Assembly: GCA_951406725.2 (NCBI GenBank)
Contig: OX597814.1
Location: 181,536,001 to 181,600,000, forward strand
Direction of reading: 5' to 3'
Length of the DNA stretch: 64,000 nt
Source: Octopus vulgaris
Taxonomy: Eukaryota
This document shows positions 5,432-57,481 of the stretch, piece after piece. The notes under the pieces are model-generated. The model searched no databases and was not told where the DNA came from. It saw only the letters and a list, made by a program, of their open reading frames with translations. Position 1 is the first letter of the stretch. Every line of letters starts with the position of its first letter. The translations under genes and the position numbers were made by a program.

Positions 5432-5486
5432 ACTAGACTTATTATCATGATTCTTTCTGTAAATCTATTTGAAATGTTTTGAGCAG

Positions 5487-27397: not shown

Positions 27398-27827
27398 GGC
27401 AATCTTTCGTCTCTAGTAGACCTTTCCGTCGATTTCCGTAAAAAAAACTTCTTTTTTTTTTACATATGGGCTTGCGGGAACTTTTGAAGTAATGAGAGCG
27501 AAAGAGACTAAGAGAAAGCGATTGTATGACGAGGGAAGTTCTTTTGAAGTTACCGTGCATGGCAAGCATTGATGTACATGTGTGTGTGTGTGTGTGTTTG
27601 ATTGGGTGTGGGAGACAGACAGTATGTTGTGTAAGTGAAGTGCTTCTGTTAGTGTGTGTGAAGAGACAGAGTAATATGTGAAAGAAAGAGATAACTGAAA
27701 TTTTTTACTCGGTGTATGTGTATGTGTATGTATATTACTTCAAAAGTTCCCGCAAGCCCATATGTAAAAAAAAAAAAATTTTTTTACGGAAATCGACGGA
27801 AAGGTCTACTAGAGACGAAAGATCGCC
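27398..27827. mobile_element. Second Merlin-like MITE nested in Tigger
   Basis: TIR of about 95 bp starting GGC(A/G)ATCTTTCGTCTCTAGTAGACC. 8-bp TSD AAAATCTG. Confidence 0.85.
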
Positions 27828-31953: not shown

Positions 31954-32190
31954 TTTATAAGGCGGTGATCTGGCAGAATCGTTAGCACGCCGGGCGAAAT
32001 GCTTTGTGGTATTTCTTCCACCGTTTGCGTTCTGAGTTCAAATTCCGCTGAGGTCGACTTTGCCTTTCATCCTTTCGGGGTCAATTAAATAAGTACCAGT
32101 TTTGCACTGGGGTCGATATATTCGACTTAATCCGTTTGTCTGTCCTTGCTTGTCCCCTCTGTGTTTAGCCCCTTCTGGGTTGTAAAGAAA
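31954..32190 (+). mobile_element. Monomeric family-A SINE with TSD
   Basis: TSD TAGGTAGAGTGGGATTT at 31937-31953 and 32191-32207. Confidence 0.85.
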
Positions 32191-32816
32191 TAGGTAGAGT
32201 GGGATTTGAAGGAAATCTGGCTGTTATTTCATATGAGCACAAACATGGCCATGTGGTTTAACCCTTTTGCATTCAGATCATGGCGCAGGAGTGGCTGTGT
32301 GGTAAGTAGCTAGCTTAACAACCACATGGTTCCAGGTTCAGTCCCACTGCATGGTGCCTTGGGCAAGTGTCTTCTACTATAGCCTCTGGCTGACCAAAGC
32401 CTTGTGAGTGGATTTGGTAGACGGAAACTGGAAGAAGCCCGTCGTATATATATATATATATATAATGTGTGTGTATATGTTTGTGTATCTGTGTTTATCC
32501 CCCTAGCATTGCTTGACAACCGATAGTGGTGTGTTTATGTCTCCGTAACTTAGCAGTTCAGCAAAAGAGACTAATAGAATAAGTACTAGGCTTACAAAGA
32601 ATAAGTTCTGGGGTCGATTTACTCGACTAAAAGGCAGTGCTCCAGCATGGCCACAGTCAAGTGACTGAAACAAGTGAAAGAGTAAAGAGTATCTCATAGT
32701 TTGAAGATTTCAATGAAGTGATTTTTATATTTTTAGAATGACACTGTAGGGCAAGTTTCAACATAAAAGAAGTAGAAATCTGGGCCTGATGTGGCTGGTT
32801 TAAATGCTTTTCATGT

Positions 32817-33717: not shown

Positions 33718-33789
33718 GGATCTTTACCTTTTGACCTACAGATTTAAAAAATATTTTTTTTAAATCTGTCGGTCAAAAGGTAAAGATCC
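33718..33789. mobile_element. 72-bp palindromic mini-MITE (Merlin-like termini)
   Basis: GGATCTTTACCTTTTGACC...GGTCAAAAGGTAAAGATCC with an imperfect 8-bp TSD (TTTTACAT/CTTGACAT). Confidence 0.65.
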
Positions 33790-34375: not shown

Positions 34376-35188
34376 AGCAGCAACTCATGAAACTTCAGCA
34401 CTGAATCAATAATAATCAACCATATTGAGTAGTTTTTGCTTAATAGCATACACCATCGCTTTTTCCCTTCTTTTAGTCTTTCTTTAATCTTTCTCTCCCC
34501 TTTCACACACACTCTCTCGCCCTCTTTCACTTATTCTTTCACACACATATAAAAACACTTTTTTACTCATCACTCACTTTATATGTGTGTGTGTGTACGT
34601 CTGTCTGTCTATGTATATATGTATGTATGTATGCATGCATGCATGTATGTATGCATGCATGCATGTATGTATGCATGCATATGTATGTATGCATGCATGT
34701 ATGTATGTATAAATAATATTTATGCATATATACATATATGTACATACATACACACACATATAGTGTGAGTATCAGTTAGAGGGATTTAATATCTCTAAGG
34801 GATAATTAAATCCAAAGTCGCTCCTGGTTATTACCTGGGTAGGTACAGTCTTTTGTAAGGTGGTACGGTAGCAGGTGGTTCGGTTGGTAAACCGTAGTTT
34901 AGGTTATATAAGAGTTACCCCCCTTCACCTACACCGCGGAAAATTGAATACACACGTGCGAAAAAAAAATGTGCTTAATCAAACTAGGAATCCCACACCT
35001 ATATAATACTCACCCCGCCCTAATTACCCAACGAAACTAACTAGTCTACCACAATCAAACCGCTAACCAGCGAATTTACCAACGCAAGAACAAAATTTGA
35101 TATAAGACTTACTACCTTCGTTTATATTATCATCACATATGTTTCAATTATTTTAGCATCCGAACCGATGCATCTATATATATATTCA

Positions 35189-35237
35189 CATTCTGAAGAG
35201 ATTTACTTAAACCAGTAAATCGAAACGATCGTAAATG
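35189..35237 (+). ncRNA. Minimal type I hammerhead ribozyme motif
   Basis: catt-CTGAAGA-gatttact[taaacc]agtaaatc-GAAA-C-gatc-G-TA-aatg. Intact core, 8-bp stem II, 4-bp stem I, palindromic stem III loop and GUA cleavage triplet. Confidence 0.8.
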
Positions 35238-35347
35238 CTACCTTCATCTCTGCTTCCTCCTTCTTTGTTATCTAATTAAATTAAAGGCATACCAGCGAAA
35301 ATCACGAGTTTCCCCTTGTTATTACATCCATTTTCTTATATATATAC

Positions 35348-35388
<41 letters not shown>

Positions 35389-35427
35389 CATACATGTATA
35401 TATGCATATATGGATACAGGGCATCAC

Positions 35428-35686
35428 AAAACGTAAACAACATGAAATACGAAGAAAAATTTGTGTATGCAAACAACGAGAGAAACAAATGGAAAACAAG
35501 ATAAGTAACATAAAGAACGACCCTTCATCAGTTGTCGGTTTTCTATCTACTCTTCATTTCAAGCATGAGAATGAGGAGTAGATAGACAGCCGACAACTGA
35601 TGAAGGGTCGTTCTTTATGTTACTCCTGTTTTCCATTTGTTTGCATACACAAATTTTTCTTCGTATTTCATGTTGTTTACGTTTTT
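35428..35686. repeat. Fold-back element between (TA)n tracts
   Basis: Arms at about 35428-35563 and 35572-35686 are reverse complements. Contains CTGATGA at 35597. Confidence 0.8.
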
Positions 35687-35695
35687 ACCTATATA

Positions 35696-35735
<40 letters not shown>

Positions 35736-35765
35736 AATATGTATGTACATATATGTGTGTATATA

Positions 35766-35848
<83 letters not shown>

Positions 35849-35923
35849 ATTACATGACTGAAAAGGACACATCCATTTCCAAGTCAGTTTATGTATGTGT
35901 ATGTGCATGCGTGTGTGTGCGCG

Positions 35924-35959
<36 letters not shown>

Positions 35960-35962
<3 letters not shown>

Positions 35963-36380
35963 CAAAATAAGCAAGAGGATATCAAGTAGTAATGCAGTAA
36001 GACCGTGTCAAGCGGGTCTATTTAATTGAACAATGCAATCATTACATCAATTTAAATGCAATGCCATCTTCAGCTGCTCCAATAAATAAATGGAACTATA
36101 ACAAGTAGGACACATTAATATAGTTTTTCTTAAATATTTTAACAAAGCAAGAAGATGGAAGAAATTCCTGTTGTTGCTATTGTAGCTAAGAATAGACTAC
36201 AACTTCTATGATCCATATATTAATGTGTCCTACTTGTTGTAATTCCATTTATTTATTGGAGCAGCTGAAGATGGCACTGCATTTAAATTGATGTAATGAT
36301 TGCATTGTTCAATTAAATGAAGCCACTTGAAACGGTTGTATTGCATTACCACTTGATACCCTGTTGTTTATTTTGATTTT
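35960..36380. repeat. Fold-back element with hammerhead-bearing arms of about 160 bp
   Basis: Arms 35960-36122 and 36216-36380 are reverse complements. Confidence 0.85.
36261..36344 (+). ncRNA. Hammerhead ribozyme-like motif (partly degenerate)
   Basis: gcag-CTGAAGA-tggc...gcca(ctt)-GAAAC-ggtt-GTA-ttgc. A degenerate antisense copy lies at about 35994-36077. Confidence 0.55.
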
Positions 36381-36509
36381 ATTCACCTTACTTCGAGCTG
36401 CATATTTTATTCACCTTACTTCGAGCTTCCATATTTAATTGTGGTTTATATTTGTTAATGAACACTTTTTTTATTTATTTATTTATTCTTTGTTGTTGGG
36501 TGAAAAAGT

Positions 36510-39500
36510 TTGAGCACTTGTAAGGAGTAAGATTTTGATGTTGCACAAGCTGCAATGTGACAATTTAAAGGAATTTTGCTTGTATTTTCGTTTCGGGTCT
36601 GTTGGCGATGAATCGTCATTCTTTTACGTAATGACACGCCAGTCTGTCCTATGCAATTTAGCTAACATCCATCGCATGTAATTACGTTGATTAAATTTTC
36701 TGAGTTGCAGGTGAAGTTGACTATTACTTTGAAGGTTTGGCCATTTACAAATAGGAATTACAACCGTGTTTCGTGGTCTGCTACCACAACAGCTCCTTTA
36801 TAGGATCCAGTTAGCTCAAGACATCATCAGGAGGAACCACGTCCGGTTTAGTCCCCTACTCCTCTACCGTTTTGACGTGGCGGCCCTCCGCCTTTCGGAG
36901 GTGTCTTCAGCTCTGGTGTTGGGTGCATGTCTTCTTTCTTCTTCTTTATTCTGTTCCCTGGCCTCTTCAATGTATCGTCAGCGAGTGTCAGCCGGTGACT
37001 GACTGTCTTGTCAAATTTCTCCCTTTAAATACCTGCCGCATAGACTCCAGCAGGCAACCCCAGCAAGTTGTCACGTGACACTGTCTCACCTTAACTGACT
37101 AGTGAAGGCGCGTAGTTTTAGCCCGCGCTTTTTCTAAACGACCGTCACCTGTCAGTCAGCGAAGCTGATTCAGTCAGCTTGACTCACCGAATGATGTTAT
37201 TTCCCATCGGCGTGTTTATGGCTTTCAAGCCATTTTCGGTCTTCCCGCTTCAGCCATATATAGAAGCTGGCTTTTTCGACCGCCTCCTGTACTCTCCTTA
37301 TTAGTTTACGCAGCTCGGGGCTAGAAAAAACAAATCTTCTTTTGAAAAGCGTTGTCATTTTCTTTTCAATGAAGCCAGTTGATAATATTCGACATTCCAT
37401 CCCTGTTCTCTACATTCTTCGATTAGCTTTTCATACCTCTTCTCCTTTCGTTCCTCTGCGTTGCCGATGTTCTCTTCCCGAGGTACTGTCAGTTCTAGTA
37501 AAATTCCTATTCTCCGGTCTCTGTTCCATAGAACTAAATCCGGTCTTTTTGTTGTTTTTATTAGTGAAAATACTACTTGTCTTTCCAAGTCCGTGGCCAC
37601 CTCCCAGTATCCCTTCCATCTTTCGTCCATCGCGTATACTTTACTTCTAGGTCTGGTTTTATAACCTTTTCCCTCTTTGTGGAAGTATACTTTCCTGTGC
37701 TTTTCTGCTTTTGGGTACTCTCCCCTATTGTACCTCTCGATCTTCTTGAGTGTTGCGCTTATGACACCGAGGACTTGATTATGCCGCCATGTATATCTTT
37801 CAAGTGCTAGTCTGCAACTTGACAGAACATGTCTAACCGTCACTTTCTCTCCGCATCTACACTCATCGGTTTTGTTTATGTTCCACCGGACTAAGTTCGC
37901 CGGTGAGGGTAAAACGTCGAAGGTAGACTTGATCAGGAAGGATGTTCTTGCTTGTTCCCAAGCCCAAAGTTCCTTCCATGATATTCTGCGGTTGATCACA
38001 TATTCCTCCCATCTCAGGCACTGGCCATGTTGACTGCATTGCACCAAATGTACATTTTGCCTTTCTTCTTCCTCCTTTCTCACTTCGTATACCAATGCCT
38101 CTTTCATCTCTCTTACACTGCTCTTGCAAAATGGCCTGAAATGTTGCGACCCTAGGCCGGTTCTACCTTCTTGCGTCGCTCCGACTATATCTGCATGCTT
38201 TAGTTTTCCGATCGCCCTGTTTACTGCCTCTTCCGCCTTCCATTTCCTCCCTGTTCGTACCTTTGGAGGGTTTTCCCGGATGCTTTGATCTTTTGAATAC
38301 CTTAGCATCATTACTGTCCTTGCCTTTCCTGCCTTATATTCTTCGGCGATTGATGTTATTGGTAGTTGCAGCTCGAGTTTTCCACATAGTGCAGTTGTAT
38401 TCAGTGGTTTCGGCAGACCAAGCCATTTTCTGATAAACACACTGCATCTTTGCTCCATCATTTCTACTCTACTCGAGGCCATTTCGTACATTTGCAATGG
38501 CCACATTATTCTTGGGTACAGCCCAAATTGCAGTATCCAACACTTGAATTTTCCCGGCAGCGTTGTTCTGTCAATTGCCTTTAATCCTTGTTCTACTAAC
38601 TCGTGTGTTTCTTTCCCTTGCTTCTTATCATTTAATAAATCTCTATACCATCTGCCGAGACTCTTTACTGGTTGTTCTTTCACCGTTGGTATGTCTTCAC
38701 TTCCTATCTTGAATTTCACTTCTTGCCTTCCTTTCACGAAAGCCACGCTTCGAGATCTTTTGGCTTTGAATTTCATCCTTGCCCATCCTATCAGTTCGTC
38801 CAACCGCTCTAGCGTTCCCTCTGCTGCTTCTCTACTTTCCGATAATATAGTTATGTCGTCCATAAAAGCCCTTAATGGTGTCTTTGTAACAGCTTTCTCA
38901 CAGTTTGTAGATCTGAGTAGCATTTCCGTGACTAGCACGAATAAGATGACTGATATCGTGCATCTGGCTGCAATACCTATTTCAAGCCGTTGCCACTCCG
39001 TTGTGAACTTTCTTGCTGTAAATCTCATCCTCAGGTTGTCGTAGTATTACATGAGCATTCGTTGAACATCTTTTGGAATCCAAAAGAAGTCCATCGACTT
39101 TGGTCCTTCAGTTAGATATAGGCATGTGCCATAATTTCTTCTTCCGCGTTTTTTGTCACTGTTGGATTGGAGATTTATGTATTTTTGATCCAATCAGAAT
39201 GTGGTTTAGGGTTTGGGGATGTCTTTTGCTTTTGATGATTTGATGTGCTTCCAGAATCATTTTGATTTTTTTCAACATCAAATAGAATGGGGAGGTTTTT
39301 ATGGATGTGGTCGAATGTTTTGATGTTTCTGGGGTTGAAGGTTGACATGTATGATGAATATTTTCCCTTGTTTTTTTTTTTTTTTTTTTTTTTTGGGGGG
39401 GGGTCCTAAGTTCTTGGACATTAATATGTTTTGCTCAATCTATTCATTTGGGGATTGTGCCAAGTAGGAATTCTATTTCGATAGGTATATTCTTCAATTC

Positions 39501-39850
39501 ATCCAATCTTTATTCACGTTTAGATGGGCCTGATACTATTGGGCATATTTGCTTTGCTAGGTTAAAGGGTATGTTCAATGTGTCTTGGGGGACATGATGT
39601 GAAAAGCAGGTAGTGCATGGAGTCCGTGGGTTTATAGAACATGTCCTTGTCTATTCTTCCATCCGTGTTTGCAATTAAAATATATAGAAAGGCAAGTTTC
39701 CTGGGATTAAATTCCATTGTGAATTGGATGTTGTTGCTTGGGTTGTTCAGCATATTTTTGAATTGTGAGTGTACCAAAGTTTTCCTGCCATAAGATAAAA
39801 CAATGATCTAGGTAACTTTTCCAATTATTTTTAAAAGTTGTTTATGAACT
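36510..39850 (-). mobile_element. Penelope-like element remnant (RT plus GIY-YIG), split by a LINE insertion
   Basis: WKSYLDHCFILW (about 39790-39825), IQFTME..LAFLYI..FYKPTD..YLLFTS (39562-39777) and GTCLYLTEGP (about 39100-39130). After the insertion: FTCNSENLINVITCDGC..CIGQTGVSLRKRMTIHR (about 36610-36755), a GIY-YIG nuclease. Confidence 0.8.
36760..39100 (-). mobile_element. 5'-truncated HERO-like non-LTR retrotransposon (557-aa ORF 37355-39028)
   Basis: RT motifs CTISVILF and AFMDD, PGKFKCWI, RTGRKWKA, CRCG...HVLSSC zinc knuckle, RHNQVL, and RPDLVLW..LLELTVP restriction-like endonuclease. Confidence 0.85.
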
Positions 39851-39872
39851 GTCTCCATAACCTACACACGCA

Positions 39873-39921
<49 letters not shown>

Positions 39922-40259
39922 GAACATATTCTGAAAAGAAAAGAAATCTACAATTAAATTCAAAAGAAATCTTTTTCAATAGAATTTTTGACACCTGACC
40001 TCTTGAAATCCATGTGTGTATATCTGTCTCTTTGTGTCTGTATGTGTACGTCTCTGCTTGTGTGTGTGGGGGTGTATGTGTGTGTGTGTGCGTGCGCTTA
40101 GATTCATACTAGAGGAAATGAAAAAAATTACCGCGTCTCGCCAAAACTGTTTTTAGGTTGGTCGTACTACCTTCAACGCTCTCGTGCTAAAAGACCTGCG
40201 TAATGCTCGATGAGGGAGCAGGACGCCAGTCAACCTTCCCCACTGATCACCCTAGAAGC

Positions 40260-41780
40260 GTTTGCCTATTTTCCAATATTTGGATAACTCAAAAGGCTTT
40301 CTTTTGTTTAGAGAGATGGTTCGGTTGACCAGAACGACCACTGAAGCGACCATTGAAAAGTTAGTATTTTCTCAGCAAATTAGTCATGGTTTTACATACG
40401 AAATCATCTACAAGCTTCGCTTCTGTAAAGCCTATGCGAAATGGGAGCCAAGAGAGCTTGCCGAAGTGTATAAGCGCAGACACGTAGAGATATGTCAATG
40501 TTTATTCGATCTCTACAACCATGAAGGTAGAGCCTTTTTGGAGAGAATAGCCACAGGAGATGAGACCTGGGTCCATCATTTTGTGCTAGAATCCAAAAGG
40601 CAGAGTATAGAGTGGAAACACCCAAAATCGCCAGCGAAAATGAAATTCATGACTTGACTGCGCAGAAAAAGTTATGCTAACCGATTTATAGATGGTCGTA
40701 GTCACCGTTATAGATAGTGGTTCGCAGTGCGTGTAGTGTGACCATCTAAACGACTCATATCAGAAGGCTGAAATAATACATATGGTGTGCCAATTGGAAA
40801 AGAGAGACACAACCGTGTAGGTTTGCAGAAAATTTATTCATATATTTACGTGTATGGGTTGTATGTTGGCTGTTAAGCATGGTGAGGTGGTTCGCGAACA
40901 GCGCTATGTTAGAACCTGTGCAACATTGCTGGTGCTGTGTACGTAGAGGCGTTGTTGGTAACGTTGGTGAGGGACATGATGGTGGCGACGAAGTTGGAGG
41001 TCGCTGTGATGCTATTGGACGGGTGTTGTCTGGCGTCGTCACTGGAACTGGCTGTGTCGTGTGGTCAGTGGCTAAACCTTAGAAGGTCTAAAACCAACAG
41101 ACTTCGAGACAAGGAGAAGTTGAGTTTTTATAGATAATGGTAGGCTCAAAATTGGAGTTGAGAACAGACTGTCTCACGTGATTTATTTGGAGGCTGCGAT
41201 TGGTTGGGTTGCATATTGGTGCGCGATAGAGTAAGAGACAAATTGCGCCAATACCAACCAATCAGAGTGATAGACACAACGGAGTCCAAACAGCAACCAA
41301 AGATTAGCTGTTATCTGCTACGTTCGAATGTATGTGTATATAATAGAGAGCGGAAGTTCACTAGAGTTCGCTACAGATTTTTAGGCTGAAAAATGGCCTA
41401 TACTGGAACATTACCTGAAAATGGGGTCTGCAGTCACTAGTCTAGACTACAGTGAAATACTAGCTAACAAACTGAAACCGGCAATTTGCATCAAATGCTG
41501 AGGTCTATTGTCAAAGCAAGTGTTATTGTTACACGATAGACGCCCACACTGTTGAAACCATTGAAAAATTTGGGTTTCGAGTTGCTAGAACGGCCTGCAT
41601 ACAATCTAGACCTCACCACTTCCGACTATCTCTTTTTTGGACCGTTCAAACATCCTCTACGATGTTGTCGACTTGCTTTGGACAACGAAGCGGAGGAAAC
41701 GGTGCATAGATGGCCGCGTGATCGGCCGAAAACCATCTTCTCCGATTATATAAACAAGCTAACGGTCATTAAATTAGATT
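40260..41780 (+). mobile_element. Mariner transposase remnant interrupted by a solo LTR
   Basis: WEPREL, TGDETWV, ESKRQSIEWKHP (40262-40657) and PAYNLDLTTSDY (41552-41797). Confidence 0.8.
40687..41375 (-). mobile_element. Solo LTR (Gypsy-like)
   Basis: Termini T(A/G)TAG...CTACA and 4-bp TSD GATT (40683-40686 / 41376-41379). TATAAA and AATAAA on the minus strand. Confidence 0.65.
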
Positions 41781-42916
41781 TAAATTATCATATTTAAACT
41801 ACAGTTTGATGCAAGTTACAGGGATCCTACAAGCGTTGCGAAAGTAGGGAGTTAATTAATCTTGCCGTAAAGCGAAGTACTGTTAAGCGAAGTTAATTTT
41901 CCCACTGATTTTCATATTATAAAGTGATAATGCGTCCTGAAAGATACTTTCGAAAAAATAGCAATAAAATAAAAACCAGAAACACGACCACTTTTATGCA
42001 TAAAAGTAATTTCTAAACATACAGAGTATAATATATATAAATATAAACGCATTAAGTGAAATACGTCAGGAAATAAATATGTTTTGCAATATAGTAGGAT
42101 ATGTAGTTACCACAAAAGATGTTGACTTCTGTCTGAGGGGTGGTGGTGGAAAGAGAGTTACTGGGAGGATGAGAAGTACTATCTTCTATCTTACAGCTCA
42201 TCATCATCAACGTCTACGTGAGGGGCGGAGAACTTATCCAAATTTGTTTATGGTGTCAGCACTTTGTACAGTTCAGTGTAAGAACTGAGCTCATTGTAAA
42301 TTACTCTTGTAATTTTTAAACAATGACACGAGTCATTGTTCCAACTTAATTCTAATTAGTTGTAGAGAACTCTCATTGAAAAATTCCTCAACAAACACAC
42401 ATCTGTACACTTATATATACATGCATATTCTCTACAGAGGTGTCATGTTCTCGACAACACTAAAAGGTTCTCACAAACATCATACTTTACAGAATGTATG
42501 GGATGGGCTTTTTCACAACACCAGCACTTGAGAGGTAGCCATAACCTTGTATTATGACTAAAGGAACCTCACAATCATATGTCCACCTCTTTATTGAACA
42601 AAAAGCATGAATGATGAAGGCATTAATGACAGCAACGAGAAGGATGTGAGACGATTGATTGAATGGTAGTGTACTCAGTAGTTTGAGATAGGTACCTATA
42701 TTCAAGGTAATATGATTGAGATGGTAGGAAGTTGATAGAACCTGTGTTACTTCTCTGCAGTGACTCCACCCCCTGTGATCCAGGGGTGACTTTGAGACAA
42801 CAGAGGCCCAGGAGAAAAGAAATAAGAGTGTGCCGGCAGACAAAGGGACATGGTGGGTGACAAGCAATACAGGAAAGGAAAGTGAAGATAGAATTAATCA
42901 GGCACAATATATAGAA

Positions 42917-43231
42917 AGAGTCTGTTCATAAAATATTTAGTTGTGTCATCTAATGCTTTTATGCATCTTTTATTCGCAATGAAAAATACCAGTTATATTA
43001 AAAAACTTTTTTAACCAACTGCATTATCAAATCTTCAGAAATTACATAACTCTTATTTGCAATCTTTATGTCTAGAATGAATACTAAAGGTTACTAAGAG
43101 AATTATGTATTCTCTGAAGAGTTTACAATACAATCAACTGATAAAACTTTTCCTTATATAACTGGTATTTCTCATTGATAATGAAACATGCATAAGATGA
43201 CATAACTAAATATTTATGGATAAACTATTCT
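42917..43231. repeat. Decayed fold-back element
   Basis: Arms at about 42917-43055 and 43095-43231 are imperfect reverse complements. CTGAAGA is present in both arms. Confidence 0.65.
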
Positions 43232-43372
43232 GTTTTGTTTTACTTTTGTTGCACAAAACAAATTTTTATTCAGCCTACTGTCTAATAGCGATATCAGTGA
43301 TCTTTCAATCACTGTTTTACTATATCAGTAACAGCCAATTTTGTTTTAGCATCGGTTTGCCAGTGGATACTG

Positions 43373-43413
43373 GCTACTGATGAAGCCTAAAGAAGCAGAC
43401 ATGTGCATTTAGC
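43373..43413 (+). ncRNA. Decayed hammerhead remnant
   Basis: gcta-CTGATGA-agcctaaagaagca-GACAT-gtgc-ATT-tagc. Stem I is intact, while the GAAAC and GTH core positions are mutated, partly by CpG-type changes. Confidence 0.4.
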
Positions 43414-43549
43414 AATGCCACCAACTTTTCTGGACGATTTCCATCTGCTACTGGTATAATTCTGTTTTTTTAACACCATACTTCAATAAGAGAAGGATTG
43501 CTAGGAATCCATCAAGGCCAGAATCTGAGTTTGCATCTACCTTATCTAT

Positions 43550-44300
43550 GGCCACTATTACATCTTCTTTGATGTTGATTCCTTCCTTTTTATATCTGTA
43601 TGGTTAAGAATTCTACAGGTTTGCTGATTTGCATGTGCCATAAGGGTTGGGGTGAAAACACTTAAGAAGTTTTCATTTAATGTTTCACTTATCCTCACTG
43701 GATTTCCCATGATAGAACCACCTCTTTGCAGGAGTGGAACTACCCTGCAACACACAGAGATAGTTTCTTTGGCATACTTAAAGAATGCTTTAGGCTTGAT
43801 TTTATATTTACTGTAACCCAAGTTTCTTTGTCTGCTCTCTCTTTTCATGAGAACATTTCAGATTTTTCTCAATCTCCAGCAGTGTTGTTTGCAAGCAGGA
43901 TTTTTCACTACTAATGGGTTCTCTGCTTAGGAAGATTGTAGTCTTTGTATGCCATCTCATAAGAACTTTCCTCTTCCTGGAAATTTTTTCTTGTGGTGGC
44001 TTTTCTTTCTGGGACAAACTTATAGTATATGGCTTGCATTATAGCCATGAATTCTTTGAGGTTCATGTTGATGTCAGGTGTAGAGAGACATTGGGGCCAA
44101 TTTTGTTTGATGATCTCTTTTTCTACTGACTTCCAGTCTGTTTTATGGAAGTTCAGATTGCATAGATTTAGGGTGCTTCTCATAAGCTACATGTCTGCTG
44201 ACTCCTTTGGTCCATACATAATCAGCTCAATTATATTGTGATCTGAAATTAGTGTCGGTGTCACTTTCTCATTATGGATGAGATCCATATTGTTTGTGCT
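43550..44300 (-). mobile_element. CR1/L2-group LINE remnant (endonuclease end plus linker)
   Basis: SDHNIIEL, NFHKTDWK and PKAFFKYAK...ETLNENFLSVFT. Confidence 0.65.
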
Positions 44301-45353
44301 CATACTAGTATCTAACTATTGTGTCTCTTCATATTTCATTCCCCTTATACACCTTGCAGGAGAGTCATAGAATTCTTACAGAATGATTTACTATTTATGT
44401 TGTACTAATAACTTCTTGAAAGGACAAAAATCTGAAAGCTAGCTACCTGTAGGACTTGAACAACACATTTTCTATAATCATGACAGACATGAAAAAGTCT
44501 GTTTCTAAATGGAAATATGAAGCAGCTGACTTTCCCTGTTCGTTGGTTATAATGGAGACAGGTTCATGTGTCAAAAAGCTAGCTAGAGGCAATGGCTTCT
44601 TGGAGCTATTCAACAACAGCTTTCATCCTATATTTATGGACTGCCATATTAGCTTGGCTATAACTATTAATTTATTTTCTCATTTTTAAGATTAAAACAT
44701 CTAACTTGATGGAAAAGATACTGAAAGTTATTTTGGTGCAATTAGTAGCACACCTGTCAAGCTTACATGTATGTTCAAGTCAATGCATGATTTGGGTAGC
44801 TTTCAGCCTCTTTTCCATTATGGAGTTTTTAACTCAATATGTTATGAGCTATTATTTATAACTGTATTGCTTCAAAATACACCATTAAATGACTTATTGA
44901 CTATATTAATTTAAACTTGATATTTGTGCTATAGTTTCGCTAAAGTAAAAGTAGAGACAGTGCACAATAAAATGTTTCTCATCTGTTTAAGAATTTCAAT
45001 TCGATGTAATATAATAGGATTTTATATCTTTAATATATTACAGATAATCTTATTCATTCAACCAATTTAATTTATATGAAAAATAATTATTAAACTCAAT
45101 TATTGCATATCAAGTTAATGCATCAAATCAGAATAATTAAATGGCAAATCTCTTAATTAACATCTAACAAAAATGAAATAAATCTACCCATTTAGCATTG
45201 CCATTCAATTTGATAATTGCAACTTATTTAATTTAAAATCTGTTGGAGTTTAAAGGTATTCTGAGTATTGAATCAACCTTAAAAATGTAGTCATTCGTAA
45301 TGTACAGTAGAGTATAGCACAGTAATAATAAAGCCTATGAATAATTACTGGAG

Positions 45354-45620
45354 TGTCCACTTAACTGTAACTGCAGTGGACTGTTGTTCTGTTCAGGGGT
45401 AATGTTGGTTTGCATGTCTAACCAGAAGTGGGGTGGGGACGGGCAACATTTGAGAGCTAAAACAATACAAGGAAGTGTAGTAATTATTAGATTGTCCACT
45501 TAACTGTAACTGCAGTGGACTGTTGTTCTGTTCAGGTGTAATGTTGGCCTGCATGTCTAACTAGAAGTGGAATGGGGACGGGCATCATTTGAGAGCTAAA
45601 ACAATACAAAGAAGTGTAGT
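45354..45620. repeat. Tandem duplication of about 140 bp
   Basis: GTCCACTTAACTGTAACTGCAGTGGACTG...GAAGTGTAG occurs twice. Confidence 0.85.
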
Positions 45621-46029
45621 GCAACCAGTGATGTGTCACAACATCTGATAGTCTGGTTGAAGCAGTGAATATGAACTCACACAAACACAAATTGACTGAT
45701 TACTATGTTATCTTCACCGCATCCTCACCACATCAGTTTTATAAGATTGTAAGACTGTATTGAGTGAGCATCCCAAACCGTCAGACCTCAGTCAAATCGT
45801 CCAACTCATGCTAGCATGGAAAGCGGACGTTAAATGATGATGGTGATGATGGTGATGATGGTGATGATGATGATGATGATGGTGATGGTGGTGATGGTGA
45901 TGGTGATGATGGTGTTGATGGTGATGATGATGGTGGTGATGGTGGTGATGGTGGTGGTGGTGGTGGTGGTGATGATGGTGGTGGTGATGGTGATTATGAT
46001 AATGATGATGATGTACTAAATAGCAGAAA

Positions 46030-46580
46030 GACTGAAGATTATGGAAGCGTCTTTGAGAATGGGTTCTGTTAAGCAAACGCATGAAATTCTTGAAGTCAAG
46101 TTTCCAGATAAAGGCTTACCAGCAAAGAGAACAATACAAATGTTGGTTAAAAAGTGGCACATTATAGGGTTAGTGTACACCACCCCAGAGCAAAGGGACC
46201 TTACAGTTCAAATGCCAGAAGTTGTCCAGGTCATTCACCAAAGAATTACTCAAAGACTAAAGAAGTCAACATGTAAATTGGCACAGGCGTCTCACATAAG
46301 CTGGCGGTCATGCCAGTGGGTGTTGAAAAGTCTAAAACAATGCACACATAGTAGAGGAACTGAAAGAATACCACACATGCAGTCTCTGCCATTAATACCA
46401 TTATTTTACACCAGATGTACCTAAACATGGTTAGACCTGCACAGCTGTGTATCGATACTGCAGGGAACCAGTTTCAAAATCTTCAATAATAGTGAGTCCT
46501 TTCCTGCACTTGTAAATTTACTTCTGTTTATACACTTTGCTATGGAAGCTGGGCTGCTTTTTTGTGTGCCACCCTGTATA
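46030..46580 (+). mobile_element. Internally deleted Tc1/mariner-type element
   Basis: HTH-like KFPDKGLPAKRTIQMLVKKW. Terminal TTTTTGTGTGCCACCCTGTA. Confidence 0.5.
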
Positions 46581-47144
46581 TTTCCCACACCCTGGGAAAT
46601 CCTTTTTCATCCCATTTATATTCACATCATCATACCTTGAGAGTATGCCATGGCACATTTCCACGATCTCACTCTCTCCCCCTCTCTCTCCCTCTCTCTC
46701 TCTCCATCTCACTCATTCTCTCTCTCTCTCTCTGACTGAGGTAACCATGTAACACTTGTTTCTGTCCCTTTGTCATTCTCAAACCTCACATCACCTGGTA
46801 CACCACCCTCCTCTCAAAGGATCTTTGTCTTGCAAGTTACTTGATGATCTTTCCCAGTACTGGTTCCACATAAAAAAAGCATCCAGTCCACTCTGTAAAA
46901 TGGTTGGCATTTGGAAGGACATCCAGCTGTAAAATCCATGCGAAAACAGAGAATAGAGCTTGGTGCAGCCCTCTGGTTTGCCAGCTTTTGTCAGCATCAA
47001 AATGAGACATGATGATGATGATGCCAACATCAAAGATGGATATTAAATCATGATGATGATGATGTTGATGATGATACATAAATATTTATTTATATACATA
47101 TACATATACATACATACATATATATATGTATGTATGTATGTCTG

Positions 47145-47201
<57 letters not shown>

Positions 47202-47205
<4 letters not shown>

Positions 47206-47641
47206 GTTGTCCGGAAAGTTTGTGCCGATTTTTAAAGGAAAGAAAAAGGTCAATAAATACTTGCCATTACATTTTTAATCAACCAAGTATGAACCATTTT
47301 GTTGCACAATGCGTCTCCATCTTTCCTTTAACTTGAAAATACCCTCTTCCCAGAATTGAGGTGGTTTCATGGCAAACAATTCATCAAGATATCATTTTAT
47401 GTCATCCAAGGAATTGAAATTTTTACCATTAAGACCTGAGACCTGAATAAGTGAACATCTGAAGGAGCAATATCTGATGAATATGGAAGGTGGGGTAACA
47501 CATCCCAGAGCTGCAGCAATTTTTGTCTGGTTCCCAAAGCATCAAGTGCCGAAAATGAACTTTCTTATCTTCCATTTTAAAGGATTACAGAGTCAAAAGG
47601 TAAGCTACTATAAATCGGCACGATCTTTCCAGACAACCCAA
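47202..47641 (-). mobile_element. Mariner MITE inserted in (TA)n
   Basis: TIR TTGGGTTGTCCGGAAAGTTTGTGCCGATTT / AAATCGGCACGATCTTTCCAGACAACCCAA. Internal PYSSDIAPSD and ERWRRIV remnants. Confidence 0.85.
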
Positions 47642-49215
47642 TATATATATATATATATATATATAACGGAAAGCTTTATGAAAATAAACAAAAGACGAAG
47701 GCAGGTGGAATACAAACAAACAATTATATATACATACATACACACAAATGCACACACATACATATTTATATACTTTCTTACATGTTTGTGTGTGTGTATG
47801 TGTGTGTGTGTGTGTGCATATGCATATATAAGTATATATATTTATGTACATATTTTTTTTATTCCCTTTTATAAAGTCGTCATGTAAGCTACTTTAAGCT
47901 CATAATGAGACATTTCAGAATTAGCATAGCTCCAATATTTTTTAATAAAGCACAGCTGCCCAACAAAACTGTTTGAACAATAGATTATTAAATTGTTGTT
48001 GCTGTTGTTGGTATTGTTTCTACTGATTCTGCTGCTGTTGTTGTTGTATGCTTTGTGGGTATAAAACCAGAATATAGTTGTTATTAAGTTGGACGAAATA
48101 AAAAGCATCAAAATAGAAATATTGAATAAGATACAATATCAAATCTTGCTATGTTAGTTTCATTCAAGAAGGCTATCTATCTACCCATTCAGTCAGACAA
48201 CTTCCCTATACCAATGCAACTCTTCCACACCAGATGCCCTGAACTTCCATAGCAGTTTTCATATCCTCACCCTAATATCCAGTGTCTTTCATAAGTTGAT
48301 CAATATATGCTCTTCTCAGTCAGCTGATAATTGTATGTCCATGAGTGAGTTTCCAGAGAAGGAGATCACTGGATATTTCATCCTTGTTTCTCTAGCAGTC
48401 TCCAGCATAATGTCTTCTTCTTTCTCTGATTACGGAGGTCATGGTAGGAAGAGTGCCATACAGTTGCTGCTTTGTTGGGTGTTGCTACCAAGAAAGATTG
48501 AGAACTGCACAAAGTATTCCCATGTATGTACTGTCAAGCTTCTTTCCAAAGCTCTTGTTCAGTATTGCTGCAGAGGAACTATAGAGAAACTGCTGCAACA
48601 ACTAAGCTAAAAGAAAAATACCTCAGGAAGCTCACTCAGATCAAAAAGCAGAAACCAAACTAAAGCAAATATAGCAAATTTAGTAAATTACTAACCTAAT
48701 ATCTTTTGAACTAAATGGTAATAGGCTTTTGCATCAGCACTCATAATTTATTTGTTTTTATCCCTGAATCACAACAGAGTGGTAGGAGAAAGCTGTTTTC
48801 AAAACTGAAAATTAGCCAAAATATTTACAACAGAATAGACTCCATTAAAGGCACCCAAAGGATAAAAAGATAGTGGTGTTAAACTGGGTGACAGATTAAT
48901 CTGCTATCCATGCAAACTACAGTAGGTTTTGAAATCAAAATGAAAATGTAAAGAGCCAGGACATTTACTACAAAGTATCCCATCAGAAACACTAACAATA
49001 CTGCATATCTGCCAATTTAGACAGTAGTTTATTCATTGACGTGGAGGGATGAAAGGTAAAGATGAGTCTGATTAGATTTGATCTTAGAATACTGGTATTT
49101 ATACTATAAAATAAGAAGGGAGAAGGTTCAAAATGAATAATAGTAAGATCTTAACTAAGAAATGTGAACCTACAGGATAAATCCTTTCAGACATAGTTCA
49201 TTTTCTTGTCACTTG

Positions 49216-49251
<36 letters not shown>

Positions 49252-49447
49252 TTGCATTATGGAACTGTCATTTTAATGAGATTTTTTTATTTATTTATCA
49301 CCCAACGAGATACATCCGCACCGCCGGATGCTCCTGTACCAGTTTTTTGTGTGTCCCACAAGAGGAGTCGATGCTGGGTGTGTTGAAACAATTGTTGGGA
49401 TTAATAATATATTCTCATATATTCCATCTTCTGTCTTTTATTTGTTT

Positions 49448-49497
<50 letters not shown>

Positions 49498-50053
49498 TAT
49501 ATAGAAAATATTATTAAAATTAATATTAATATCCTTGAAAATATATGTTAACACACAATCAAGGCTAGCCAAAATTAGAGAAATTCAAACTGAACAAAAA
49601 GAATGTTTAAAGCTGGTTCAACCGAAGACATTGCTTCATTTAACTATCTAAGTTTCTATCAGCCATAACATAGAATTCTTATCTTTATTTTTTTATTCTT
49701 TAGTTATCCAGTGACGTCACCAGTAGTTGTATACAAAAATAGCCTTTTTTAGATTATACTTCTATACAGATTTCTAATTGTCATAATGTAGAATTCTTAT
49801 CTTTATTCTTTTATTATTTCATTATCCACTGTCATTATACAAAAATAACCTTTCTGAAATATGTTTATTTTTTATTTTCATAAAATATTCTTGTTATCCA
49901 GTGGTGTCACCATCAGTTGGATGAAGAAATGTCTTAGGTTGTATCAGGTTTGAGTGTTCTTTTTTGTTCAATTCGAATTTCACTAGTTTTGGATAGCCTT
50001 GATAACATTTTGTTAACATATATTTCTGAGGATATTAATATAATTTTAATGAT

Positions 50054-50096
<43 letters not shown>

Positions 50097-50154
50097 TTAA
50101 AGGCACCAGAATTTAGTATGGTATCATCCATATAATTCAAAATGGGGTGATTAC

Positions 50155-50268
50155 AAACAAAATAAGCCACAAGGATATCCAGAGGTAATGCAGTACGGTT
50201 GTTTCATGCGAGTCGCATGAAACGATCATACTGCATTACCTCTGGATATCCTTGTTGCTTATTTTGAT
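50155..50268. repeat. Near-perfect palindrome from the same family as 35960-36380
   Basis: AAAATAAGCCACAAGGATATCCAGAGGTAATGCAGTA...TACTGCATTACCTCTGGATATCCTTGTTGCTTATTTT. Carries only the GAAAC-gatc half of the hammerhead. Confidence 0.85.
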
Positions 50269-50300
50269 TATATATATATATATATATATATAGTATATAG

Positions 50301-50932
50301 TATATGATCCATATTGAATTAAGAGAAGAAAATGGGGAGTCAGTGGTTAATAATTATTTATTAAGAAATTGATAATCATTTCTTCCTACAGCTTTTTTCA
50401 TTTATACCCATTGAATAAATTACAAATTTGTGCATTAAATTTGCATTTATAAATTAGCAAAATATCGTCAGAAAAAGTTAGACATTTAAAAAATTCCAGC
50501 AGACCCAAAATATTCTATTCTACCTTATTTATTTTTATCCTATTATTTTATTCTTATTTTATTTTTTAGTTTTTTAGTTTTATTTTACTTCTTATTTTAT
50601 TTTATCTTATTCTTTATTTTATTTTTTCTATTATATTCAAATTAATCCGTTAACTCTCACACAATACAAAAATAAAAAAATAAAACAATTCCATCAATTT
50701 AGTCTGCTGGAATTAACAGATAGGTCAACATGTAATTTTTTAAGTATCTAACTTTTCCCTGATGATGTTTTGCTCATAACTTATAAATGCATATTTAATG
50801 CACAAATTTGTAATTTATTCAATGAGTATAAATGGAAACAGCTGTAGGAAGTAATGATTATCAATTAATTAATAAATGATTATTAACCACTAACTCTCCA
50901 TTTTCTTCTCTTAATTTAATATGGATTATATA
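50301..50932. repeat. Fold-back element with hammerhead-bearing arms of about 200 bp
   Basis: Arms at about 50301-50503 and 50702-50932 are reverse complements, with an AT-rich spacer. Confidence 0.85.
50755..50850 (+). ncRNA. Type I hammerhead ribozyme motif with extended stem II
   Basis: ttcc-CTGATGA-tgttttgctcat...atgagtataaatg-GAAAC-agct-GTA-ggaa. Palindromic AGCT loop. A degenerate antisense copy lies at about 50381-50475. Confidence 0.72.
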
Positions 50933-53485
50933 CTTAATATATACCTATTGATTTAGGGAAATTTTATTTCCCAAAGATATAAGGTATAGAACCAGTGTTT
51001 TCTTGGGTGTAATCATCCTTTTAAGAGGTTAATATATCCTCTAATTGACTTACATGTGTGTGTGTGTCTGTCTGTCTGTCTGTGCATGTGTGTATATATA
51101 TGTGTGTATGTATGTATGTATGTATGTATGTATGTATGTATGTATGTATGTATGTGTGTGTGTGTATGTGTATGTATGTATGTATGTATATATGTATGTA
51201 TGTATGTATGTATGCACACACACACACACACACAATATACATAAGTGTCTCAAAAAATGAATACATGATTGTTAAGTCGATATTTATTAAAATACATTTC
51301 ATTTTCAAAATTTAATAGAATCCACAAGCAGAATTTAATTTTTTTTTTTTTTATGACCACTTCTTTTCAAACTGATGACTTTTCAGGCCCATGAACAACT
51401 GATAATACAAACCAAAAGAATCACAAACATCAAGAAACATTTTTTCGGTGTTTGTGTTCATTCTCATTCAATGTCTATCCTCAAGTAGTCAGCTGTTGCT
51501 GGTTTTGTACCATGAACATTATCTTTTAAGTATTCTCATTAAAAATGCCTACTGGTGTACAGTCTGGTGAGTGCAGAGAGCATTGTATAAAACCTCTTTG
51601 CTCAATCCACAATTTTTGCAAAGTCTCATCAAGGTAGGCCCTTACACTACAGTGGGGGTGGGTGGGGGTGCCCCATTGTTCTGGAAATAAAACTTCACAT
51701 CTTCAAAGTCCTCTTGAAAGTTTGGTCAGACAGATTGTTACCGCAAGTTTAACCCTTTAGCATTCAGATTATTTCATCAAATGTAATGCTTATCTATTCA
51801 TATTGACAGTGGCATGTAAAAAAGCACCCAGCACTTTCTGTGAAGTGGTTGGCATTAGGAAGGGCATCCAGCTGTAGAAACCATGCCACAATAGACAGTT
51901 GGAGTCCAGAAAGCTCCTTGCTAGTCAGCTCCATGTCAAACCATCCAACCCATACCAGAATGGAGAACAAACATTAAATGATGATGATGATGATTGCTTT
52001 AAATTAATCATGAATTGTCTTGTTGCATCAACAATTTGATATGATTGTTTATTCTTAGAATGACATTGTAGAGTAGGTATGATATTATTATTTATTTTTT
52101 GTGGTGTATTTCTTTTATTAAGTGATGGTTTCCTTTCATTTATTAGTGTGTATTCGTGTTACTATTGTAAAGAAATGTCATATGAATATACTGAAATAAT
52201 TTTTATCTCTAAACTATTCAGCATGCCATTGCATTTGTCTTTAGCATGCTGATAAGTACCAACATAGCATATCAGTATATTCTTGCCAATCTTCCTTCAT
52301 TTATTCACCTAAACTCCTTGCAGCTTCTCCTATATTTACTGTGATCAAGTTCATTCATTCACCCTTCATACATTTTAATCGGTACACTATATTCCTTATT
52401 TCACAGTTAGTCCTTGAGTTTGTATTTCATACAATTTCTATTGGTACATATCAAAGGAGTAAGTTCTTCTCACCAGTGATCTAATGGATTTACCCCGACA
52501 TCTCTACTACTTTAATTCTAAGTTCAGTGTACTCAGAGCTTTTGTAAACCTACAGGCTAATTATCCTGTCAGTGTAGCATTAATAAATAACACCCCTTGA
52601 CACTTGTCACAATTGTACTATGTGTTTATCTTATCTTCTTACTAATCTTTTGTAGGCTGTTCCATAGTTTGCTTAGGTTGGGTTCTATTAGTATCATTTC
52701 TTATATCCTCAATTCTTTTCTATGCTTCCTTGTACACCCTGATTCTATTTTTTTGATTGAAACATGAGAACTGCATGCAATGCATGAAGTCCAGTGCATG
52801 TTTCTCTATTCCACAAAATTTGCACATGGAGTCAATGGAAACATGTTATTCATTATCCTAACTGAGTCTGCTATCAGTATATTTATCTCAATGTTATGGG
52901 ATATAGCTGAACTCCCATGGATTACATGCTTAGTTTGGGTTTGGCATAATTTGAATGAAGGAATTGTATTTTGTTATCTATAATTCAGTATCAAAGATGG
53001 AGAATAAATTATTTGAGTGCATATTTGGTGGACAGAGTTAGCTATACATTGAATGATCTCCGGGGTACTCTTTTCAAGTTTGAATGAATAGTTTTTTGGA
53101 GTTGCTGTAACTATAAGGTTTTAATTAATACTATACAAACTTAAAATCAAAACTGCTTTAAATCAGTATACCAAAGCAATTTTAATGTAAATATGTGCTA
53201 TGATATCTTGGTAAAATAATGGGCTTAAACAAAACCTGACATTGGTTAATGAGTCAAAAACTACATTTCTGCTGTTTCCGCAAGAACTTGGAATATATAA
53301 CTGAGATTCCCTCCATAATGTAACTGAATTGTAAAAATACATATAGGCTCACTTACTGGTTGGCTTCATTAGTTATGTAGTGAATACATGTAACATAACA
53401 TGCTAAGCCATTGTTGGACTGTGTTCGACAATGGCTCAGCCGGGCAAAACTTTGAAGTCACTGTCGATAATATTCTTGTTTAAGG

Positions 53486-55993: not shown

Positions 55994-57481
55994 TTTGACC
56001 AGGACTGATACAATGAGGGGATGCACCAGATTCCAGTCTGATTTAGCATGTTTTCTACTGCCATATGCCTTCCTAATGTCAACCCCTCTGAGAGGTTAAT
56101 GGGTTCTTTTATGTGCCACCAGCACAGTTGCCATTTGCATGACACCAGCAACAGCCATATTGTTCAAAAGATGCTTTTTACATGCCACTGGCATTAGTAC
56201 TAGTCATGTGATACCAGCATCAACCACCGTGTGTGTGTGTGCATGCGTGTGTGTGTGTGCATGAGCGTGCGTGCGTGTGTGTATGTGTGTGTGCATGTGC
56301 GTGCATGTGTGTGTGTGTATGTGTGTATCTATATGTATGTCTGGCCCATTTAAAAGTATTCTTGATGCATTGGGTGATATCATATGCTGAGAAGACCTGT
56401 TGAGTCAAGTAAAATAAAAATCATAGCTGTGGCCAGTGCCCCCTGACTGGCTCCCATGCTGGTGGCATGCAAAAAGCACCATCTGAACGTGATCGATGCC
56501 AGTGCCCCCTGACTAGCTCCCATGCTGGTGGAACATAAATTACACCATCCGAATGTGGTTAATGCCAGTGCCCCCTGACTGGCTCCTCTGCCTGTGGCAT
56601 GTAAAAAGCACCATCCAAACGTGGTCAATGCCAAGTCCACTTCACTGGCTCCCATACCAGTGGAACATAAAAAGCACCCACTAAACTCTGAGAGTGGTTG
56701 GTATTAGGAAGAGCAGCCAGCTGTAGAAACATTGTCAGATCAGATTGGAGCCTGGTGCAGCAGCTGGCTTTCAAGACCTCAGTCAAACTGTCCAACCTAT
56801 GCCAGCATGGAAAACGAATGTTAAACAATGATGATGATGATGATGATGTATGTATGTATGATGACAGTTGTCCAACCATGACTGAGGAAGACCAATAAAT
56901 GATGATATATATATATATATATATATCATCATCATCATATGTATATATATTCTGTAAATATAATTATATGCTTAAGCTTATAAGCATTCAGCATATATTG
57001 GCTATAGAAAATAGTCTAGTATTGGGGTATATAAGTCCTCAACAGAAAAATACAAATGGATAAGTTTGCATACCTATCCCTTTTTTCTGTCAAGGCAAAA
57101 AACTCCTTGCATCCGTTTTCAACCTTATTTACATTGCTGAGCCTCCATCCATTCAAGAAATGAACCATGGCTAGGAAAAAGTGTCAATCTGATGGTGAAA
57201 GATCTGTATTATTGGCAGAGTGGGGTAACACTTCCAACCCCTGAAGTTTCTCACTTGGTCTCATTGGCAGTGTGTACTGGGGTATTGTCATGAATGCATG
57301 CATGCATGCATGTATGTATGTATGTATGTATGTATGTATGTATGTATGTATGTATGTATGTATGTATGTATGTATTAAGAGAGTTTACGAAAAAAACAAA
57401 AGACGAAGACAGGTGGTGTACAAAACAAACAGATGTATTAGTATAATGCTCAGAAATAGAAAAGGTTCTTCTTCTTTTATG

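Follow-up and report, generated by a model that had tools for sequence, protein, structure and literature searches.

Probable Penelope-Like Element Stubs in an SLC7-Type Intron

The five inverted repeats found in one intron of the 64,000-nt window (the whole stretch of Octopus vulgaris DNA analyzed), here termed E1 to E5, most probably represent the 3' ends, i.e., the pseudo-LTRs (pLTRs), of several families of Penelope-like elements (PLEs), inserted as short, 5'-truncated copies in which the hairpin was probably made at each insertion and the hammerhead was inherited as a probably inactive passenger. A PLE origin and TA-rich targets fit the evidence, and E1, E3 and E5 are included by analogy. 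Most likely, the repeats are dead-on-arrival copies that exemplify an already published PLE insertion pattern and not a new class of mobile elements.

The host intron spans 32.4 kb (21553 to 53955, plus strand), has GT..AG boundaries and phase 0, and is flanked by exons that join in frame. The downstream exon matched AA_permease_2 (E = 1.7e-08), and the amino-acid permease gene is presumably of the SLC7 type, a label that we assigned from its motifs. All five inverted repeats reported by the first-pass annotation were recovered in this intron, and all five are oriented head-to-head. E1 (35428 to 35685) has a right arm that is about 11 nt longer than the left one and is TA-rich on both flanks. 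E2 likewise has arms of unequal length: a left arm (35960 to 36206, minus strand in family sense) with a decayed core, the outer end of which adjoins (TA)16, and a right arm (36216 to 36378, plus strand). E3 (42916 to 43229) is an old repeat, E4 (50136 to 50269) is a snap-back repeat with 57-nt arms, a single centre base and a TA run at its right, and E5 (50300 to 50936) has arms of about 200 nt around an AT-rich centre. The arms differ by substitutions at 3.6% (E1), 9.2% (E2), 19.4% (E3), 8.8% (E4) and 9.6% (E5) of positions. In addition, a solo stub of 152 nt, H0 (35185 to 35336, plus strand), forms no fold-back and has a TA run on each side. A repeat comparison within the window revealed no direct repeats among the elements.

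A (TA)5 or longer run was located within 15 nt of one end in four of the five inverted repeats, as compared to 2.1% of positions in the region, in line with the earlier statement that most of them abut (TA)n. E3 is flanked only by TATATA, and E4 and E5 have one TA run in common. Microsatellite or AT-rich targets were thus seen for four of the five fold-backs and at both ends of H0. The elements had also been described as concentrated in this region; six elements in 15 kb gave p = 0.004, whereas treating them as three clusters raised this to p = 0.13, so that concentration was not established.

Hammerhead Cores in the Arms

A core was considered complete when CUGANGA...GAAAC-N4-GUA was accompanied by a stem I of at least 4 bp. 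The window contains three complete type I cores, all on the plus strand, at 35193 in H0, at 36265 in the right arm of E2 and at 50759 in that of E5, while shuffled windows contained 0.005–0.01 cores on average and never three or more (0 of 200 shuffles). The H0 hammerhead (35189 to 35237), complete and of the minimal type I, has a 4-bp stem I, an 8-bp stem II closed by G-C and the palindromic loop III GAUC; its core sits outside any inverted repeat. The E2 right-arm core (36261 to 36344) has a 4-bp stem I and a 57-nt stem II insert, the pairing of which in this copy ends short of the core. The E5 right-arm core (50754 to 50851) has a 5-bp stem I, a 69-nt stem II and the loop III AGCU, and the E5 left arm has lost GAAAC. 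In the E3 right arm, CUGAAGA...GAAAC-AUGC-AUA surrounds a 62-nt insert and stem III is broken. Each arm of E1 carries CUGAUGA without the GAAA half, and E4 carries only the 3' half (GAAAC); E1 and E4 are incapable of forming a hammerhead. Thus, of the whole or partial cores that had been ascribed to the arms, whole ones were confirmed in the right arms of E2 and E5 and half cores in E1 and E4; E3 is broken, and the third complete core does not belong to a fold-back. A CTGATGA...GAAAC match at 36830 on the minus strand was rejected as a hammerhead: it lacks stem I and is part of a LINE end.

The Rfam model Hammerhead_1 (RF00163) matched H0 only, at 13.1 bits (E = 3.2), below the gathering score of 34, and matched neither E2 nor E5. 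Among 150 of the 158 matches from an Rfam scan of the whole window, all were driven by microsatellites.

It had been proposed that one arm yields a ribozyme on either transcribed strand and that the other arm can mask it. The first part would have been possible only for E2, E3 and E5 at the time of insertion; none of the five elements has a full core on a minus-strand arm today. The second part agrees with folding predictions, in which the masking penalty on the core was 44–103 kcal/mol in whole elements and 6–12 kcal/mol in single arms, so that antisense masking could occur in a read-through transcript. In this model, masking looks like a by-product.

The E2 Family in Public Contigs

The comparison with public contigs covered the E2 family alone, in three DNA runs. 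Per run, 4407–5645 contigs aligned to the E2 region, a count that includes the 3' end of a neighbouring LINE, and the E2 family is high-copy. A further run, presumed to be RNA, gave 388 aligned contigs, which says nothing on expression. Contig pieces covered 35960 to 36201 without a break. In the three runs, 46, 38 and 36 contigs departed from E2 at 36201 into one common continuation, i.e., the family sequence proceeds past the E2 centre with different letters. The apparent spacer of E2 is natural upstream family sequence lying inside the left arm. The longest pieces (32 of 16,168 were inspected) end at 36201 or begin at 36216.

Fold-back joints of the E2 family were present in all three DNA runs, with three joints at an identical place in two runs. 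Among 79 joints, the 15 with the best support lay at differing places, with one or two contigs each per run. Eight of these 15 were skips from the left to the right arm at eight separate places, with one contig per run and single-locus depth; the short side was below 30 letters in four of the eight, and short-read contigs break in repeats. Joint depth reached at most 153 among the best-supported joints, single-locus pieces having about 30–60, and filler of 1–27 letters was found at joints (12 of 28 filler cases). Truncation at the 5' end and the junction are therefore copy-specific in the E2 family. Loose ends at 36261 had pointed to stem I as a hot spot of truncation; this was set aside, since two adjoining private substitutions can cause the clipping.

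The tail is one-sided. Beyond the right arm of E2, family contigs extend through a tail (36379 to 36400, plus strand) to 36392–36400, followed by a near-duplicate at about 36407 to 36427. E4 has a tail-like extension at its left (about 50136 to 50154) that aligns with the E2 tail, and both measure about 20 nt; in E1, a tail restricted to one side is not evident, and those of E3 and E5 are putative. E2 is related to E4 (alignment score of 78 vs. a shuffle maximum of 31), although their centres differ. The elements had been assigned to several unrelated families, which is partly wrong for this reason. Weak alignments of E1 with E3, H0 with E2 and H0 with E4 were not accepted after some 50 comparisons against base shuffles. 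A sister subfamily with GAAAC GATC GTA CTGC was found in the contigs. The idea that the E4 centre is stem II of its own hammerhead, a self-priming hot spot, was rejected, because the family has a longer stem II, within which E4 is interrupted.

Since the family overruns the centre of E2, the joints are scattered and the tail is one-sided, the hairpin was likely made anew at each insertion and not copied as a unit. The first-pass annotation had suggested a class of non-autonomous, palindromic elements mobilized by PLE machinery; the E2 family gives no support for a separate class of palindromes mobilized as units. That the whole palindrome is a non-autonomous unit, transcribed and re-inserted, in which one arm controls the other arm's ribozyme, is very unlikely. 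In its favour, both E2 arms hold four common departures from the family majority, and the predicted masking is thermodynamically strong; the contig comparison also concerned the centre of E2 and not those of E1, E3, E4 and E5. However, the best-supported joints show no amplified centre, the centres of the related E2 and E4 differ, and no hammerhead is possible in E1 and E4. Moreover, all four departures map to the innermost 103 nt, a stretch poor in differences between the arms (3/103 vs. 12/60, reached in 1 of 200 permutations); this fits conversion between the arms or membership in a subfamily.

Assembly or library fold-back chimeras have a next to negligible probability. The contigs derive from short reads, and no contig piece among those listed bridges the centre of E2 itself. 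Yet the arms differ by 4–19% plus indels, and the joints recur between runs as described. In addition, at nine listed positions one E2 arm is mutated while the other keeps the letter found in most of the family, and with these letters GAAAC and GUA are restored. Miniature inverted-repeat (MITE) or fold-back DNA transposons that duplicate a TA target and contain hammerhead-like words by chance are a highly improbable source as well. Inverted arms and TA-rich flanks would suit them, but full cores with stem I far exceed chance, and the unequal arms, the one-sided tail, the varying junctions and TA runs mostly at a single end speak against them. For E2 and E4, the evidence has largely refuted this explanation.

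The Neighbouring PLE Remnant

The PLE remnant that had been noted beside the elements is present, but the bulk of 36510 to 39850 is an inserted LINE. The GIY-YIG part of the remnant (36430 to 36757, minus strand; tblastn E = 2e-28) is 68% identical to P0001, in which Pfam GIY-YIG is present, and contains stops and frameshifts; the RT-thumb-linker part lies at 39100 to 39835 on the minus strand (tblastn E = 5e-22; alignment A1). Between them, within the PLE linker, a 5'-truncated LINE (36760 to 39100, minus strand) encodes a 563-aa ORF with RT (RVT_1, E = 9.5e-07) and a PD-like C-terminal domain. We take this LINE to be of the HERO/RLE type; its 3' end is of high depth in the contigs from about 36753. 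The C-terminal GIY-YIG and the CX2-5CxxC linker are invariant in 12 relatives and decayed in the window. Judged by the CX4CX2C linker of the relatives, the remnant is probably of the Neptune/Nematis type, a typing that follows Craig et al. (2021, PMC8557442) and does not separate the two clades.

No 3' pLTR of its own was found for the remnant. Among five relatives of the remnant, reading by eye identified a minimal hammerhead past the ORF stop in two (L002 and L005); one (L003) has none after the ORF, and two (L001 and L004) end too early to show one. No sequence link was found between any arm and a parent ORF, the adjacent remnant included, and none of 128 loci extended into a match to the family (best matches of 47 nt at 77% and 38 nt at 84%). 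In prokaryote genomes and viral contigs, scanning for the motif yielded scattered short matches (120, 2 and 1 stretches). That the E2 left arm is the remnant's own pLTR was not supported, the upstream sequence of the family differing from the remnant's ORF end.

The hairpins could have been made by insertion while the template, at least for E2 and E4, was a non-autonomous, non-coding PLE derivative, similar to MRC1 or to a monomeric retrozyme, and was mobilized in trans. Such a template is possible but rather unlikely; it is compatible with the PLE-stub explanation, from which it differs in the template alone. Summed contig depth, which is not copy number, was 10^4–10^5 on the E2 arms and a few hundred on the adjoining PLE endonuclease; non-autonomous PLEs and PLE-derived retrozymes are known from the literature, and tblastn detected a PLE coding remnant in no arm or spacer, although its queries came from one PLE clade. 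However, only about 270 nt of the family is seen, for which strong 5' truncation would look identical, and tandem units, which retrozymes have, are lacking.

Discussion

Inverted, 5'-truncated PLE copies with a one-sided tail and a bias for microsatellites were described by Craig et al. (2021, PMC8557442), and head-to-head palindromes by Arkhipova et al. (2013, PMC3846280). As in these complex insertions of canonical EN+ PLEs, the 3' ends here are inverted head-to-head and unequally truncated, a tail is confined to one side in E2 and E4, the targets are rich in TA or AT, and the pLTR holds a hammerhead, which is complete in H0 and the right arms of E2 and E5 and partial in E1, E3 and E4. In contrast, the copies are only 57–250 nt long, have no ORF and are linked to no parent ORF, and their tails, with about 20 nt, fall short of the 30–40 bp in the literature.

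Dual minimal hammerheads located 100–700 bp apart on opposite strands were attributed to truncated PLEs by Cervera and de la Pena (2014, PMC4209133), who found the monomer inactive. The 4–5-bp helix I, the short palindromic helix/loop III and the many families per genome are alike in both cases, whereas the core halves of E2, E3 and E5 are 57–69 nt apart as compared to a helix II of 7–8 bp. Craig et al. give half-cores 35–50 nt apart, and long-stem-II forms may already be contained in the hammerhead-variant supplements of these two papers. Non-LTR retrozymes (Li et al. 2026, bioRxiv 10.64898/2026.07.22.740005) are also non-coding, with a type I hammerhead and PLE pLTR ancestry, but are arrays of directly repeated units that all contain a complete hammerhead; here, inverted pairs or a solo stub with mostly partial cores were found and no direct tandem units. 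In titles and abstract openings, a scope outside which most subscription journals and Repbase reports fall, no description of unit-amplified palindromic hammerhead elements or of antisense masking in PLE fold-backs was found.

According to the PLE-stub explanation, the PLE protein would nick both strands of (TA)n or AT-rich DNA. Two cDNAs would begin at the RNA 3' end, where the first starts from the end of the pLTR and the second a tail length beyond it; both would halt after 50–250 nt and be joined head-to-head via microhomology or a few filler bases; alternatively, joining may reflect self-priming on one cDNA. The arms would decay afterwards, and the antisense arm, coming first in any read-through transcript, is predicted to pair with the core. 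In the study of Frangieh et al. (2024, PMC11167929), PAc Poseidon cut and extended both strands in vitro, with two start sites leading to a tail, and the hammerhead was dispensable, the template being uncleaved RNA. Cleavage of both strands of AT-rich DNA with two starts would likewise yield a one-sided tail here, and the copies retain sequence 3' of the cleavage site, as with that uncleaved template. However, PAc Poseidon belongs to another clade and host, and the accessible data cover cleavage and extension, not head-to-head joining.

Since Rfam misses hammerheads with a stem II of 57–69 nt, counts based on the motif probably underestimate hammerheads in genomes of this kind. With its thousands of short fold-back copies, such a family constitutes a natural data set for distinguishing two-ended priming from self-priming in PLE insertion. 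It is conceivable, if quite doubtful, that the geometry acts as a safety catch: the antisense arm always comes first and silences the hammerhead, fold-backs persist in introns from which cleaving solo copies are purged, and some palindromes, bearing an undescribed hammerhead variant with a long stem II, are mobilized again as non-autonomous units or give rise to hairpin small RNAs that act against parent PLEs. If true, this would link insertion geometry to the tolerance of ribozymes in introns.

Fold-Back Elements in the Permease Intron

The window, animal DNA with 37% GC and many microsatellites, carries amino-acid permease exons (plus strand) on both sides of an intron (21553-53955), and their reading frame is kept when they are joined. 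This intron entirely contains five inverted repeats, E1 (35428-35685), E2 (35960-36378), E3 (42916-43229), E4 (50136-50269) and E5 (50300-50936), the solo 152-nt stub H0 (35185-35336, plus strand) and an adjoining remnant of a Penelope-like element (PLE). All five repeats claimed by the first-pass annotation were recovered by self-comparison of the window. Their arms diverge by 3.6-19.4% and are oriented head-to-head in five of five, with the hammerhead-sense 3' ends facing outward. As claimed, (TA)n was abutted by four of the five, one end of each lying at most 15 nt from (TA)5 or longer (regional background 2.1%); H0 is flanked by a TA run on each side. The asserted concentration in the intron was not significant with neighbours counted as three clusters (p = 0.13). 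The families were described as unrelated, which fails for E2 and E4; other cross-matches between elements are weak.

A sixth inverted-repeat element, absent from the earlier list, lies at 49491-50073 (arms of about 140 nt, 80% alike; TA-rich ends; internal duplication) and has CTGAGGA in its right arm without the GAAAC half. Further inverted repeats at 33718-33789, 27398-27827, 26740-27156 and 1243-1907 are without hammerhead cores and look like MITEs or mariner derivatives. A SINE-like family with 184-nt tandem units occurs at 12841-13630, 25159-25850, 31959-32284 and 58655-59138; one copy is an inverted pair, and none contains a CTGANGA core. At 45342-45620, 140 nt are directly duplicated in tandem (92% alike).

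Hammerhead Cores and Their Predicted Masking

A complete core was defined by the type I descriptor and a stem I of at least 4 bp. Three occur in the window, all on the plus strand, in H0 (35193), the E2 right arm (36265) and the E5 right arm (50759); this was reached in 0 of 200 local dinucleotide shuffles. E2 and E5 thereby have whole cores in their right arms, and those of E1 (CUGAUGA only), E3 (AUA in place of GUA) and E4 (only the 3' half) are partial or altered. E2, E3 and E5 no longer have GAAAC in the left arm. For H0, the Rfam Hammerhead_1 alignment scored well short of the gathering cut-off; E5 and E2 gave no alignment.

The predicted penalty for a core-compatible fold was 44-103 kcal/mol in whole elements versus 6-12 in single arms. 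Whichever strand is read, the antisense arm lies ahead of the sense arm, so such masking follows from geometry and needs no selection. Minimal hammerheads are described as not cleaving as monomers in Cervera and de la Pena 2014 (PMC4209133). All three intact cores, the unmasked H0 among them, are in host-transcript orientation, an arrangement that shows no sign of purging (n = 3).

Hammerhead-like words were also seen at 36753-36840 (minus strand), in the high-depth 3' end of a non-PLE element, the LINE inserted in the remnant (CTGATGA and GAAAC, separated by 51 nt and lacking a partner for stem I). The TA-flanked stub at 49247-49420 may be a further hammerhead remnant; it reads GAAAC-AATT-GTT-GGGA, and its 5' core looks decayed. 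Two stubs at 47667-47725 (directly after a TA run) and 57384-57431, 88% alike, are possibly very short PLE 3' ends.

The E2 Family in Public Contigs

Public contigs were placed on 35958-36800 at 80% likeness. Three DNA runs, carrying three organism codes, contributed 5645, 5542 and 4407 contigs and a putative RNA run 388, some of them on the LINE end; contigs break in repeats, contig depth is not copy number, and E2's is the one family compared. The E2 'spacer' is natural upstream family sequence, as pieces span 35960-36201 unbroken. At 36201, 46, 38 and 36 contigs depart with one common continuation that differs from the E2 right arm. The longest pieces (best 32 of 16,168) end at 36201 or begin at 36216, and none of them bridges the E2 centre. 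Among the best-supported 15 of 79 joints, eight were left-to-right skips at eight different places, each with the depth of a single locus and a single contig per run. The shorter side reaches at least 30 letters in four of these skips, and three of them were seen in two runs. The other seven were strand switches, ambiguous since the reference is palindromic. On the right side only, the family reaches about 36400, a tail with which E4's left end aligns.

The feature reported by the first-pass annotation is real, and its interpretation is supported in part. For the E2 family, mobilisation of the palindrome as a unit is not supported, given the departure at 36201, the scattered skips and the one-sided tail, and a palindromic class amplified in this way is highly improbable. 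A template that was non-autonomous and linear is unlikely, though less so; non-autonomous PLEs (Craig 2021, PMC8557442) and tandem retrozymes derived from PLEs (Li 2026, bioRxiv 10.64898/2026.07.22.740005) have been described.

At nine positions (among 40 of 191 variant rows), one E2 arm is mutated and its partner has the letter of the family majority, which gives back GAAAC and GUA. E4's motif is found unbroken in a sister subfamily, as GAAAC GATC GTA CTGC. Both E2 arms share a departure from the family majority at four inner positions, and arm differences are rarer in the inner 103 nt (3/103 versus 12/60 outside; 1 of 200 permutations, in one of five elements), a pattern pointing to conversion between the arms or to a minor source subfamily.

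The Adjoining PLE Remnant

The annotated remnant is present on the minus strand as broken endonuclease (36430-36757; 68% identity to P0001, a relative with a GIY-YIG domain) and reverse transcriptase (39100-39835) pieces, but the 2.3-kb LINE occupies its linker. A CX4CX2C linker, a kind described for Neptune and Nematis (Craig 2021, PMC8557442), is common to 12 longer relatives. The ORF end directly abuts the E2 right end; the remnant's own 3' repeat was not found. Among five metagenome loci with related endonucleases, a minimal hammerhead was read by eye after the ORF stop in L002 (1432-1485) and L005 (255-310); L003 had none after the stop, and the sequences of L001 and L004 do not reach far enough. 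The L005 hammerhead has U on either side of stem II, as in a sister subfamily of E2.

About 28 nt of near-duplicate sequence come after the E2 tail (36379-36438) and run into the last codons of the remnant; re-initiation, slippage or insertion at the junction of ORF and pseudo-LTR (pLTR) are candidate origins.

Proposed Insertion Mechanism and Relation to Known Elements

Both strands of TA-rich DNA would be nicked, priming two cDNAs at the RNA's 3' end from start sites set one tail apart. The RNA template was uncleaved, because the sequence 3' of the cleavage site is kept in all copies. Both cDNAs would halt early and then, as we infer, be joined head-to-head. For another PLE in vitro, Frangieh 2024 (PMC11167929) reports that both strands were cut and extended from two start sites and that hammerhead cleavage was dispensable. 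Self-priming in place of the joining of two cDNAs is a published alternative (Arkhipova 2013, PMC3846280). Joining agrees somewhat better with the unequal arms, the fillers and the single base at the centre of E4.

The fold-back pattern is already published. Earlier papers describe an adjacent inverted 5'-truncated copy, a one-sided tail and microsatellite bias (Craig 2021, PMC8557442), an inverted pLTR and extension (PMC8969392), palindromes arranged head-to-head (Arkhipova 2013, PMC3846280), and truncated PLEs yielding dual minimal hammerheads on opposite strands 100-700 bp apart (Cervera and de la Pena 2014, PMC4209133). The families seen here and their stem II inserts of 57-69 nt may be new, though minor.
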